7,482 bases of DNA, from IMG/VR virus record IMGVR_UViG_2657245015_000003; one strand, given 5' to 3'. Numbering within the stretch: position 1 is the stretch's first letter; every line of letters begins with the position of its first letter. Shown here piece by piece: positions 4,260 to 6,520 of the stretch. This DNA is from a virus (Duplodnaviria; Heunggongvirae; Uroviricota; Caudoviricetes). Both the position numbers and the translations under genes were made by a program. The notes beneath the pieces were generated by a model. That model saw only the letters and a program-made list of their open reading frames with translations. It searched no databases and was not told where the DNA came from.

Positions 4260-4661
4260 ATGGAATTTAAAGATTTACCAATGCCATTCCAGGAAATGGC
4301 AGCGAATGTGGTTCGCTCTCAACTGGCGACTCTTGACCTGAGTACTGTAGAAAAGGAAACCATCGATACTATATCCGGTAACGTGCGTCGTGCCTTTATA
4401 GGTCTGTATGAAGAGAAGCGCCTATTCGGCGGACAGAATTCGCCTGAAAACAAGAATCAAGCAAATGATGAGAAGCTGAAACACATTATCGCCTTACTTT
4501 TGGAAGACGCAAAACGTCTACAGCAACTGGAACCAAATGCAGGCACAGAGGCCCGCATTTGGATTGCCATGAAATCACTCAAATGTGAAAGCAGTGATTA
4601 TTTCAAAACAACAATTAAAACTACTCAACTTTCGGGAGAGCTACTGAAGAAATTGCCATAA
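4260..4661 (+). CDS. Hypothetical protein (133 aa), unknown function, co-oriented with the dicB-type operon
   Basis: ATG 22 nt after the ydfC-like stop, with GAGG 6 nt upstream. Codon pattern is coding-like. No recognisable motif. Lies in an AT-rich segment. Confidence 0.5.
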   Translation: MEFKDLPMPFQEMAANVVRSQLATLDLSTVEKETIDTISGNVRRAFIGLYEEKRLFGGQNSPENKNQANDEKLKHIIALLLEDAKRLQQLEPNAGTEARIWIAMKSLKCESSDYFKTTIKTTQLSGELLKKLP

Positions 4662-4899
4662 GAGCATGGTCTTTCTCTTGTTCTGCAAGATGAGCATTAA
4701 TACCTGGTATGGTTTTTTCAAATTTATCTATCTGTTGAATAACAACTTCGCGGTATACGTTTGTTTTTGTACCACCAAGCGCAGCCGTTAATGCAGAAAG
4801 CATATTTAGTATCATATCAGTGCGATATGAAAGAATCCTGATAGCTTCATCTTGTTTTTCAATAATAGATTGCAGGGCCTCAATTTGCTTTTTATCCAT
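4621..4899 (-). CDS. Hypothetical protein (92 aa from ATG at 4899; 105 aa if the GTG at 4938 is used), antisense to the dicB-type operon
   Basis: Strong RBS: AGGAGGG lies 4 nt upstream of the ATG at 4899. AT-rich coding-like codon usage (MDKKQIEALQSIIEKQDEAIRIL...). Its 3' end overlaps the convergent 133-aa ORF by 41 nt. Confidence 0.5.
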   Translation of the reverse strand: MDKKQIEALQSIIEKQDEAIRILSYRTDMILNMLSALTAALGGTKTNVYREVVIQQIDKFEKTIPGINAHLAEQEKDHALMAISSVALPKVE

Positions 4900-5231
4900 T
4901 TCACCCTCCTGAGGGTTGGTAATTAAGGAGTTCTCCACGGGTCAGGTGGAGTGCGTGCGCCGGACACGGGTGAACATCCGGCACTGACAGTTTACTGAAA
5001 GGATATGTCCCTGAAAAGTCAGGGCATAACGCGAAAGCGCACGGCGAAATTGGTCTCTCTGTACGGTGTCGTTAAATTTAGTTCGACCGTGCGCTTCCGG
5101 TTGTGGCACTCCGCGAAATGGCGCGGCGGTAAGTATGGCGGGGTTATTCCTTCCCCCGTTGAGGACACCGGGTTGTCAGGTTGACCATACGCTTAAGTGA
5201 CAACTCCGCTGCAACGCCCTCTGTTATCAAT

Positions 5232-5289
5232 TTTCTGGTGACTTTTGGCGGTATCAGTTCTACTCCGTGACTGCTCTGCCGCCCTTTTT
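5232..5289 (+). ncRNA. dicF: DicF small regulatory RNA with 3' intrinsic terminator
   Basis: TTTCTGGTGACTTTTGGCGGTATCAGTTCTACTCCGTGACTGCTCTGCCGCCCTTTTT matches my recollection of DicF at nearly every position. The 3' end is a GGCGG...CCGCC stem followed by a T-run. Lies between ydfC and dicB, as in Qin. Boundaries approximate. Confidence 0.8.
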
Positions 5290-5571
5290 AAAGTGAATTT
5301 TGTGATGCGGTGAATGCGGCTCAGCGCACGCGGAACAGTTAAAACCAAAAACAGTGTTATGGGTGGATTCTCTGTATCCGGCGTTAATTGTTAACTGGTT
5401 AACGTCACCTGGAGGCACCAGGCACCGCATCAACAAAGTTCACTTCGGTGATGAAAGGTAGAGAAAATGTTGAATGTAGCTATTGAAAACCAGAACGGGT
5501 GGAATTATAGTGCACCTGCACCTCATAAAACGGGTGCCGGGCGTGGAAACCCGAAATCATTCACGGCGCAT

Positions 5572-5594
5572 AACCGCGCTCAGGCGGTTTTTTT
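5572..5594 (+). terminator. Candidate intrinsic terminator upstream of the Rha-like gene
   Basis: AACCGC-GCTCAG-GCGGTT hairpin followed by a run of 7 T on the plus strand. Confidence 0.4.
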
Positions 5595-5763
5595 ATGCGT
5601 TAAGCACAGCCACATTCGCATTATGGTGGGGCGTGCAGGGCAGCCGCAAGGCTGGCCGGGTTCCGTGATGACCGGTATTTCCACCCCTGTACGTCTCACC
5701 ACCCTTATGGTCGTGGAAAACCTCGGTGGTGAGTTAATCAAATTCATCGCGGAGGCTGCCATC

Positions 5764-6321
5764 ATGGCTACTATCCTTACCCTTTCTCACCCTGACGTAA
5801 CCATCGAAAATGGTCGCGCTGTCACTACGTCTGTTGCGATCGCCGAGTTCTTTGGCAAACGCCACGAACGAGTGTTGGATAAAATTCGCAATCTGGACTG
5901 TTCAGCAAAATTCACTGAGCACAATTTTGTGTCGAGCGAATACACCGACTCAACCGGGCGCAAACTCCCAATGTACCAAATCACCAAAAACGGCTTCGTT
6001 TTCCTGGTGATGGGCTTCACTGGCAAAAAAGCCGCTGCATTTAAAGAGGCATACATTGCTGAGTTCGACCGCATGGAAGCTGAACTGCGCCAGAATAACG
6101 CCCCGTCTCCCGACAAAATGATTCACGGGGACGGACGCACCCTGGTTATCCGTCTCGACGAACACGGCAATATCAAATTCACTGAAACCGTTCCTGACGG
6201 CGCAATGGTCTGCACCCTGGATACCTTCCTGTTTTATCTGGAGCAACAAGGCTGGACTCTTGTAAACCGGAGCGCAATTAAAAATATGACTGTGGAGCAA
6301 TTGCTAAAAATTCATTGTTGA
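5764..6321 (+). CDS. Rha-family phage regulatory protein
   Basis: The ORF-track frame runs 5467..6321, but the ATG at 5764 has GGAGG 8 nt upstream. The terminator-like hairpin at 5572..5594 lies inside the upstream extension, whose translation looks non-protein-like. From 5764, the segment VTTSVAIAEFFGKRHERVLDKIRNL...KLPMYQITKNGFVFLVMGFTGKKAAAFKEAYIAEFDRME matches the Rha-domain pattern as I recall it. Confidence 0.6.
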   Translation: MATILTLSHPDVTIENGRAVTTSVAIAEFFGKRHERVLDKIRNLDCSAKFTEHNFVSSEYTDSTGRKLPMYQITKNGFVFLVMGFTGKKAAAFKEAYIAEFDRMEAELRQNNAPSPDKMIHGDGRTLVIRLDEHGNIKFTETVPDGAMVCTLDTFLFYLEQQGWTLVNRSAIKNMTVEQLLKIHC

Positions 6322-6331
6322 GGACGCGATA

Positions 6332-6520
6332 ATGGAAACGTCACTACCAAACGTTAATACGTCTGACGGGTGCTTTAATATTGGTGTTCTGCTCAGTAAC
6401 AGGGATTTCACCGAGGATGCAATCAATATGAGAAAATATGAACCCTACCTGCTGAATGACAATTCCATACTCTCCAGAATTGCCCTTCTTAAACTCGGTA
6501 TTTTCGGAGAGTGGCGATGA
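6332..6520 (+). CDS. dicB: DicB-like cell-division inhibitor (62 aa)
   Basis: METSLPNVNTSDGCFNIGVLLSNRDFTEDAINMRK... closely resembles the recalled K-12 DicB N-terminus (M.TLLPNVNTSEGCFEIGV...FTEDAINKRK). 62 aa. GAGGA upstream. Lies downstream of dicF. Confidence 0.8.
   Translation: METSLPNVNTSDGCFNIGVLLSNRDFTEDAINMRKYEPYLLNDNSILSRIALLKLGIFGEWR

Follow-up and report, generated by a model that had tools for sequence, protein, structure and literature searches.

The small RNA (sRNA) DicF has been studied since 1989. It lacks a promoter of its own and is derived from the dicBp transcript, which is cut by RNase III to yield a 190-nucleotide (nt) species and by RNase E to yield the 53-nt sRNA; the longer of these products is stable and builds up during stationary phase, and transcription partly ends at the DicF hairpin and partly continues into dicB-ydfD (PMC10448788). 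RNase III cuts on both sides of DicF, and a 72-nt form with an RNase III-generated 3' end arises from read-through RNA (PMC9438474). The 190-nt precursor is that of Faubladier et al. (1990), as described in both of these papers (PMC10448788, PMC9438474). Together with Hfq, DicF has been reported to pair with ftsZ, xylR, pykA and manX. The 5' end of the sRNA has been assigned to xylR and its 3' region to ftsZ and pykA (PMC5069750). In the current study, we analysed a 7,482-nt stretch of DNA from a virus of the Caudoviricetes (IMG/VR record IMGVR_UViG_2657245015_000003), which is referred to in its entirety as the window, and which carries a copy of dicF at positions 5232-5284 and, directly upstream of it, a conserved RNA domain at positions 5100-5215 that is the main subject of this report.

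Results

A conserved four-helix RNA domain upstream of DicF

The domain comprises 116 nt on the plus strand (5100-5215) and constitutes the 5' body of the 190-nt species. It is formed by an outer stem (5100-5107/5208-5215) and by the helices H1 (5111-5115/5122-5126), P2 (5127-5130/5167-5170), H2 (5139-5143/5154-5158) and H3 (5171-5178/5198-5205), the last of which closes a near-invariant loop of 19 nt, while a possible pseudoknot joins 5133-5138 to 5185-5190, all on the same strand. Scanning of IMG/VR and of contigs from one genome per species with the invariant loop yielded 85 unique copies of 150 nt, among them copies from Citrobacter, Trabulsiella, Erwinia, Izhakiella, E. albertii and Shigella.

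Compensatory changes were evident in an initial alignment of nine copies. When all 85 were aligned using MAFFT, 95.4% of the cells held a standard pair, as against 30-52% when the partners were slid, and both partners had changed at 12 pairs, values that none of 500 shuffles reached. Realignment to a covariance model of the domain (R1), a procedure which leans towards its own model, gave 95.9% paired cells and double changes at 14 of 30 pairs, again with none of 500 shuffles attaining the observed value on any measure. The window itself is matched by R1 at 5096-5218 with 147.8 bits. The individual replacements are distributed over the fold: the H3 strands GGGUUGUCA/UGACAACCC are replaced by GGGUAACCA/UGGUUACCC in Izhakiella and by GUUGCCA/UGGCAAC in P1, H2 is represented by at least eight different stem sequences among the copies, a U-A pair of P2 becomes C-G in P7, and a C-G pair of the outer stem becomes U-A in cdtI-type copies. 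The consensus register proposed for H3 by RNAalifold is contradicted by the compensatory changes of Izhakiella and P1 and was discarded.

The unpaired nucleotides are extremely conserved, both the 19-nt loop of H3 and the junctions being near-invariant. Because the loop itself had served as the search anchor, the collection was rescanned with a second anchor consisting of H1, P2 and the linker. Among at least 120 loci, this rescan returned just seven real copies with single-base loop variants, L160 and L169 being false positives, and the conservation of the H3 loop is genuine.

A cmscan of positions 4850-5520 against Rfam 15, with E values of up to 10 admitted, revealed no family for the domain, the only matches being DicF, a sub-threshold STnc100 and a chance match to mascRNA (14 bits). 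A tRNA-like nature was considered in view of this weak mascRNA match and of T-loop-like hairpins in some lineages, but was rejected as ARAGORN detected no tRNA-like gene in nine related loci, including the source locus, L002, which is 100% identical. No earlier description of the domain was encountered in the literature searched, which did not extend to the 1990 paper on the DicF precursor or to the P1 genome papers, and the domain appears to be undescribed so far.

In three loci (L024 1634-1755, L145 2649-2770 and L069 5223-5344), which score lower with R1 (98-125 bits), other sequence has taken the place of H1 and of the outer stem's 5' strand, apparently through recombination at the repeated motif CGCGAAA, which is present in the window at 5030-5036 and 5113-5119.

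The domain and its terminator in other phages

When the leader was compared to phage genomes by BLAST, only its last ~125 nt (~5100-5223) proved to be shared more widely, and the preliminary description had not recognised this part as a discrete conserved domain. The domain was identified in phage cdtI, Stx2c phages, 2H10, Salmonella phage F1055, pPE4 (labelled as an 'Actinobacillus' phage) and P1/P7/RCS47. R1 detected a single copy per locus, with no early-right copy in the window or in the phage loci examined.

In cdtI, the cI gene and its terminator are followed by a near-consensus promoter with operator-like palindromes (2184-2211), a gene-free leader of 280 nt, the domain, a terminator of -21 kcal/mol and the early-left genes. 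The domain likewise follows the repressor gene in 2H10, pPE4 and F1055, while in P1 and P7 it begins approximately 20 nt after the Pban start and is succeeded by the hairpin CCCAUC-UUCG-GGUGGG with a run of six U residues, ahead of the tRNAs and ban. In Qin-type prophages the domain is located ~0.8-1.5 kb into the operon and not at the promoter.

A simple scan located a strong hairpin with a U-tract 30-110 nt 3' of the domain in 28 of 30 sequence groups. It returned none for the Erwinia and Izhakiella loci, both of which possess a long GGCGGU…ACCGYC hairpin followed by a T-run. The stem of the terminator that follows the domain usually reads GGCGGUA.../...UACCGCC, whereas its loop and 5' arm are highly variable. 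Since DicF at Rfam level was found in one of 12 divergent loci carrying the domain, the conserved unit is the domain with its terminator, of which DicF represents one elaboration.

Certain lineages carry additional features in this region. T-loop-like hairpin loops (UUCAAUU/UUCGAUU) lie upstream of the domain in L156 (~4400-4530), L157 (~2240-2370) and L007 (~1870-2000), representing Erwinia, Izhakiella and F1055, where an AGGAGG within the long terminator hairpin precedes a mini-ORF (open reading frame) that starts with ATG or GTG and encodes MFCR at its beginning. In pPE4 (L006 ~2590-2760), the 3' strand of the outer stem, the linker and the terminator hairpin are duplicated in tandem together with TTTTTAAAGTGAATTTTGTGAT.

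Processing of the precursor and probable release of DicF

The preliminary description of the window, made from its letters alone, read the region ahead of DicF as a processed precursor, and this agrees with the published processing of K-12 DicF (PMC10448788, PMC9438474). By length and homology, positions 5100-5289 correspond to the 190-nt RNase III precursor, which is composed of the four-helix domain, a short linker and DicF. If 190 nt are counted back from the terminator, the RNase III-generated 5' end falls at 5095-5100, the 3' foot of a plus-strand hairpin formed by GCGCACGG/CCGUGCGC (5037-5044/5087-5094) in region 5037-5094, a candidate RNase III substrate. As in the K-12 precursor, a hairpin of the RNase III type is present in the window, together with a putative single-stranded, AU-rich site for RNase E at the mature 5' end. 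The stem of this hairpin is paired in 60-67 of 67 Qin-type leaders, all variants being of the G-U type, and its loop (5048-5086), with many substitutions and a 3-nt indel relative to K-12, is the sole hypervariable patch of the leader, lying inside a conserved hairpin.

A possible long-range stalk between 5081-5099 and 5316-5337 (CCGUGCGCU/AGCGCACGCGG, the latter at 5323-5333) would flank the domain and DicF, as an alternative to the 5037-5094 hairpin. In the window its duplex energy is -23.1 kcal/mol; Qin-type copies have the same partner, and cdtI-type copies have a covarying counterpart, GUGCUCU/AGAGCAU. The stalk is at most suggestive. A boxA-like GUGCUCU upstream of the domain was also considered, and is more readily accounted for as a stem strand.

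Between the domain and the body of DicF lies a linker with a hairpin that would mask the DicF seed (5216-5242, plus strand), in which GUUAUCA (5223-5229) pairs with the DicF 5' arm UGGUGAC (5236-5242). All seven pairs are retained in each of 90 canonical copies, where just two variants occur, both of them single changes that preserve pairing. The loop of this hairpin, AUUUUC (5230-5235), contains the mature 5' end of DicF (5232), and the loop is therefore the probable site of RNase E cleavage.

The DicF allele and its predicted target pairing

The plus-strand DicF of the window (5232-5284; 53 nt) is matched by Rfam family RF00039 at 5233-5284 over the full model length (positions 1-52 of 52) with 71.5 bits (gathering threshold 48; E 1e-14), which bears out the near-identical copy that the preliminary description had recognised. 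It is identical to the K-12-type copy at 51 of 53 nt and retains the same terminator hairpin and U-tract (hairpin 5247-5283, -15.3 kcal/mol, with TTTTT at 5285-5289), a Rho-independent terminator within the operon. Alignment to the K-12-type Qin locus used for comparison (L001; dicC-dicA-ydfABC-dicB-ydfD-IS2-int) places the two differences at nt 12 (window 5243), where G is replaced by U (GACGTTTGG to GACTTTTGG), and at nt 29 (window 5260), where U is replaced by C (CAGTTTTAC to CAGTTCTAC). These were precisely the two substitutions named in the preliminary description, and they are the only ones in DicF; the copy is accordingly neither an exact K-12 dicF nor a poor match to RF00039.

The U12/C29 combination is uncommon. 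As an exact 53-nt sequence it is the best match in just 90 of 4038 E. coli records, and it accounts for three of the 79 canonical copies in the collected loci, among which nt 12 is G in 65, A in nine and U in five, and nt 29 is U in 76 and C in three. A DicF variant in L135 (4789-4840), L040 and L159 combines the C29 loop of the window with a compensatory stem, GGUGGCA/UGCCACC, and another 5' arm, and C29 is consequently not unique to the lineage of the window. What is found here is a minority DicF allele with a standard leader, and in this respect DicF and its precursor leader are already known and ordinary.

The preliminary description also put forward the hypothesis that the substitutions affect target-pairing bases, and this is supported computationally. 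Duplexes were computed as local segments against target leaders of the K-12 type, folding of the whole molecule against its targets with duplexfold having produced over-extended and uninformative duplexes, and the energies are bare duplex energies that ignore accessibility and Hfq. K-12 DicF nt 5-17 and codons 3-7 of xylR form an unbroken duplex of 13 bp (-20.3 kcal/mol) with G12 at its centre, and U12 or A12 splits this duplex into 7 and 5 bp (-14.5 kcal/mol), such that G12U is predicted to weaken the xylR duplex by about 6 kcal/mol. Nucleotide 29, located in the loop segment, pairs with the A residue just 3' of the ftsZ Shine-Dalgarno sequence; with C29 the register shifts and the duplex changes from -12.9 to -11.6 kcal/mol, a cost of ~1.3 kcal/mol, and U29C is thus predicted to weaken ftsZ pairing slightly. 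Both duplexes would still form with the window allele, albeit more weakly, as judged from these energies. The positions computed for nt 12 and nt 29 agree with the published assignment of the 5' arm to xylR and of the 3' region to ftsZ (PMC5069750). Natural DicF alleles differ at seed positions, nt 12 being G, A or U among prophage copies, and with the change in the window allele, regulation of xylR is predicted to become uncoupled from that of ftsZ, which would make the copy number and allele content of prophages relevant to the effect of DicF on metabolism as opposed to cell division.

Leader, operon and neighbouring genes

The window is 100% identical to the prophage adjoining ompW in E. 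coli strain 700462 (L002). As deduced from its ORFs and from the RefSeq annotation of that locus, its operon is of the Qin early-left type, in the order dicC-like (minus strand), dicA-like (plus strand), ydfA, ydfB, ydfC, two extra ORFs, leader and dicF, followed by an Ash/Rha gene, dicB, an exonuclease gene, xis and int. The dicC- and dicA-like genes, ydfA/B/C and dicB are arranged as in K-12, and DicF consequently occupies its expected location, with ydfA/ydfB/ydfC upstream and a Pfam DicB protein downstream at 6332-6520. Relative to K-12 Qin, the window contains two insertions: two extra ORFs precede the leader, and dicF is separated from dicB by an isrK-C4-Ash/Rha module. At gathering level, Rfam recognises DicF (5233-5284), isrK (5518-5594) and C4 (5619-5706) in the window.

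The two extra ORFs are convergent, at 4260-4661 (plus strand) and 4621-4899 (minus strand), with 3' ends that overlap by 41 nt. They belong to phrog_1363 and phrog_18692, groups of unknown function, and neither has a Pfam hit. The pair is inserted between ydfC and the leader as compared to K-12, and a similar pair is present in strain 350. The second insertion, consisting of isrK, the C4 antisense RNA and an antirepressor-type Ash/Rha gene (5467-6321), lies between the dicF-dicB spacer and dicB; isrK and C4 both fall inside an annotated ORF of 284 amino acids, the N-terminal third of which matches Pfam Phage_ASH. The dicF-dicB spacer (5296-5437) is near-identical to that of K-12 and contains a sub-threshold match to the Salmonella sRNA STnc100 (36.6 bits, cut-off 47), while positions 5354-5437 are annotated by PGAP as a truncated dicB.

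Homology to the K-12-type locus begins at 4914, directly 3' of the two-ORF insert, and extends to ~5440 with 92% identity. The leader block itself (4914-5231), homologous to the K-12 ydfC-dicF spacer with 92% identity, measures 318 nt, and is slightly longer than the ~290 nt of precursor first proposed. The stretch 4900-5300 occurs in 4318 of 5426 complete E. coli genomes (~80%), often in multiple copies, most of which are more than 90% identical. The region had further been called GC-rich and highly structured; its GC content is in fact elevated (0.54 in 4901-5200, compared to 0.35-0.44 in 4601-4900), but its fold energy is unremarkable, with z-scores of -1.9 on the plus strand and -3.2 on the minus strand, and thermodynamic stability alone is not decisive for its structure. 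Rather, it is the conservation in 4318 of 5426 genomes together with the covariation which argues that this structure is more than chance.

The 5' part of the leader (4914-5036, plus strand), which corresponds by homology to the spacer between ydfC and dicF in K-12, carries hairpin A (GCCGGA/TCCGGC, 4959-4964/4977-4982) and hairpin B (CCCTGA/TCAGGG, 5009-5014/5019-5024), both on the plus strand. The two exist as initially noted, but 1-2 nt away from the coordinates first given for them. Hairpin A is conserved and lacks convincing covariation, whereas hairpin B keeps its core CUGA/UCAG and shows exchange of G-C and U-A at pair 5013-5020 (53 versus 10 of 67 sequences). A plus-strand tetraloop hairpin, CGC-GAAA-GCG, follows at 5030-5039.

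Discussion

Employing a combined approach of homology searching, covariation analysis and duplex prediction, it was possible to place positions 4914-5289 of the window as the leader and sRNA part of the dicBF operon of a Qin-type prophage, and we regard this placement, inclusive of the domain cassette and of the effects ascribed to the DicF allele, as the best explanation of the whole and as highly probable. The conserved leader domain, and not the re-identification of DicF, is the part of this locus that is worth following up. The RNA directly upstream of DicF contains a conserved, covarying domain. It is present in ~80% of E. coli genomes and, across several enterobacterial genera, in phages of the P1 type and in further lambdoid phages; it is regularly coupled with a terminator where an early operon begins, and Rfam has no family for it. 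Should it control the terminator or bind a host factor, it would constitute a common element in the control of early phage genes, and one that lends itself readily to testing.

Transcription proceeds from a DicA-type repressed promoter through ydfA-ydfB-ydfC, and here also through the two-ORF insert, into the leader, and stops in part at the DicF hairpin and its U-tract. In the precursor, the xylR-pairing arm of DicF would be masked, and RNase E cleavage within the AU-rich loop would unmask it. The cassette may be viewed as a non-coding RNA unit of early leaders, with the folded domain acting as the stable 5' body of a terminated or RNase III-trimmed RNA, and the DicF seed of Qin-type prophages would have arisen by co-option of the hairpin with its 5' arm.

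Several observations weigh against one or another component of this explanation. Helix H1 never covaries or varies informatively, and the possible pseudoknot is supported by one covarying pair (UA in 78 copies, UG in four and CG in three). The 85 copies are related to one another, with double changes that trace to few lineages (the P1 group, Izhakiella, Citrobacter, Trabulsiella and the cdtI group). The minimum free energy fold of the 190-nt or of the 379-nt RNA does not reproduce the fold supported by covariation, and the z-score for stability is weak. The energy of the long-range stalk is not significant relative to shuffled controls (z -1.5 to +0.8), and the published RNase III site '813/814' could not be placed on the window as its numbering was not reconstructable. 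The duplex energies computed for the allele are, as stated, bare ones. Finally, most versions of the cassette outside Qin-type prophages lack the DicF seed and that of P1 is a plain terminator with a UUCG loop, for which reason service as an sRNA scaffold cannot be the general role of the domain.

As to what that role is, we infer two candidate functions. Tentatively, the domain may be a cis-acting antiterminator RNA that works in the manner of HK022 put and that would modify elongating host RNA polymerase so as to let it pass the intrinsic terminator next to the domain, and possibly terminators further along. The arrangement in cdtI, where the domain stands between the promoter and the terminator ahead of all early-left genes, and in P1, where it stands between the Pban start and the terminator preceding the tRNAs and ban, suits such a function, yet each locus has one copy and none is found early-right in the phage DNA examined. 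The use of the same RNA by unrelated phages suggests a host partner, and no N-like ORF is present in the interval between promoter and terminator of cdtI. Read-through to dicB occurs without other phage functions (PMC10448788, PMC5069750), although a leaky terminator accounts for this equally well and termination at DicF is substantial in K-12 (PMC10448788). The domain moreover bears no likeness in sequence or structure to HK022 putL/putR or to HK639 putL, and R1 matches neither phage. If the reading holds, antitermination would provide for early-gene expression in lambdoid phages that lack N, in Qin-type prophages (dicB expression) and in the P1 ban operon. The further proposition that the domain represents a new class of phage leader RNA, mediating N-independent processive or local antitermination, and that DicF evolved from the terminator of the cassette, is put forward as speculation.

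It is also conceivable, if doubtful, that the domain does its work in trans, as the active portion of a structured RNA produced soon after induction or infection, and that it serves, for example, as a decoy for a host protein or defence factor or as a ligand of one, in which case the terminator would define the 3' end of the RNA and DicF would be a later addition. The location directly behind early promoters, with a terminator detected 3' of the domain in 28 of the 30 sequence groups, is consistent with this suggestion, but Qin-type prophages place the domain 800 nt into an mRNA instead of at the promoter. The extreme conservation of unpaired nucleotides, seen also with the independent search anchor, speaks for it as well, as does the stability of the 190-nt species, which accumulates in stationary-phase cells (PMC10448788), yet no partner is known or predictable from the sequence and no Rfam relatives exist. 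The probability that remains beyond antitermination and a trans-acting RNA belongs to a role in stabilisation or processing, or else to a function that has so far not been thought of.

Very little probability attaches to the proposal that the upstream region functions as DNA or protein, that is, as a promoter or operator for the ORF at 4621-4899 or as a small coding gene. Admittedly, ORFs of 44-59 codons can be drawn across the region and some phage records annotate hypothetical proteins over it, with differing strands and extents, but the compensatory base-pair changes are an RNA-level signal, indels of 1 nt and 3 nt separate close relatives inside the candidate ORFs, and no minus-strand promoter-like site is present in 4900-5300, findings which together render this proposal unlikely. 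The preliminary description had suggested that the structured region may also serve the antisense ORF as its promoter region, a suggestion for which there is no support: no sigma-70-like site was found on the minus strand of 4900-5300, and the leader is conserved in K-12 and in most E. coli genomes lacking that ORF. That the hairpins are simply those which any GC-rich spacer forms, carried along by prophage ancestry without selected structure, is scarcely credible despite a fold-energy z-score of just -1.9 and more than 90% identity among most copies, given that double changes maintain pairing in lineages as distant from one another as P1, Izhakiella, Erwinia, Trabulsiella and Citrobacter, in which the adjoining sequence has been exchanged, and that slid-partner controls fall to 30-60% paired.

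Considering the known systems to which the domain may be compared, the put RNAs of HK022 and HK639 are likewise structured RNAs in the leader of a lambdoid early operon, without an upstream N gene, before terminators and with no phage protein needed (PMC9378689), and an early-operon leader position upstream of terminators was found for the domain in cdtI, 2H10, pPE4, F1055 and P1/P7. The put RNAs, however, measure ~70 nt and possess two stems and conserved motifs, while the domain measures ~116 nt, possesses four helices and is present once per phage, and neither the motif GUCGG...GGCGGGYUCAGGAWGARCGGCAAU nor the two-stem architecture of ~70 nt is present in it. When putL and putR were located through shared motifs and the HK639 annotation, only short patches at chance level could be aligned to the domain and R1 gave no match; the domain thus falls outside the put family.

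The nutL/N leader of phage lambda occupies a comparable position, between pL and the first terminator, and is processed by RNase III; in contrast to nutL, the domain is not accompanied by an N gene and is not known to have a boxB-type hairpin function. The 190-nt DicF precursor, as treated in PMC10448788 and PMC9438474, is a processing intermediate, and the conserved fold, the covariation and the occurrence without DicF that are reported here are not described there. Lastly, the authors of the P1 genome sequence annotated a 'dicF-like region' in the ban leader (NC_005856, 68791-68892). The leader of P1, P7 and RCS47 contains the same domain (85-91 bits with R1), succeeded by an intrinsic terminator as it is in the window, but the outer stem differs from that of the window and has an insertion of 7 nt. 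Rfam does not recognise DicF in that region of P1, and the similarity to which its name refers resides in the domain that lies upstream of DicF and not in the sRNA.

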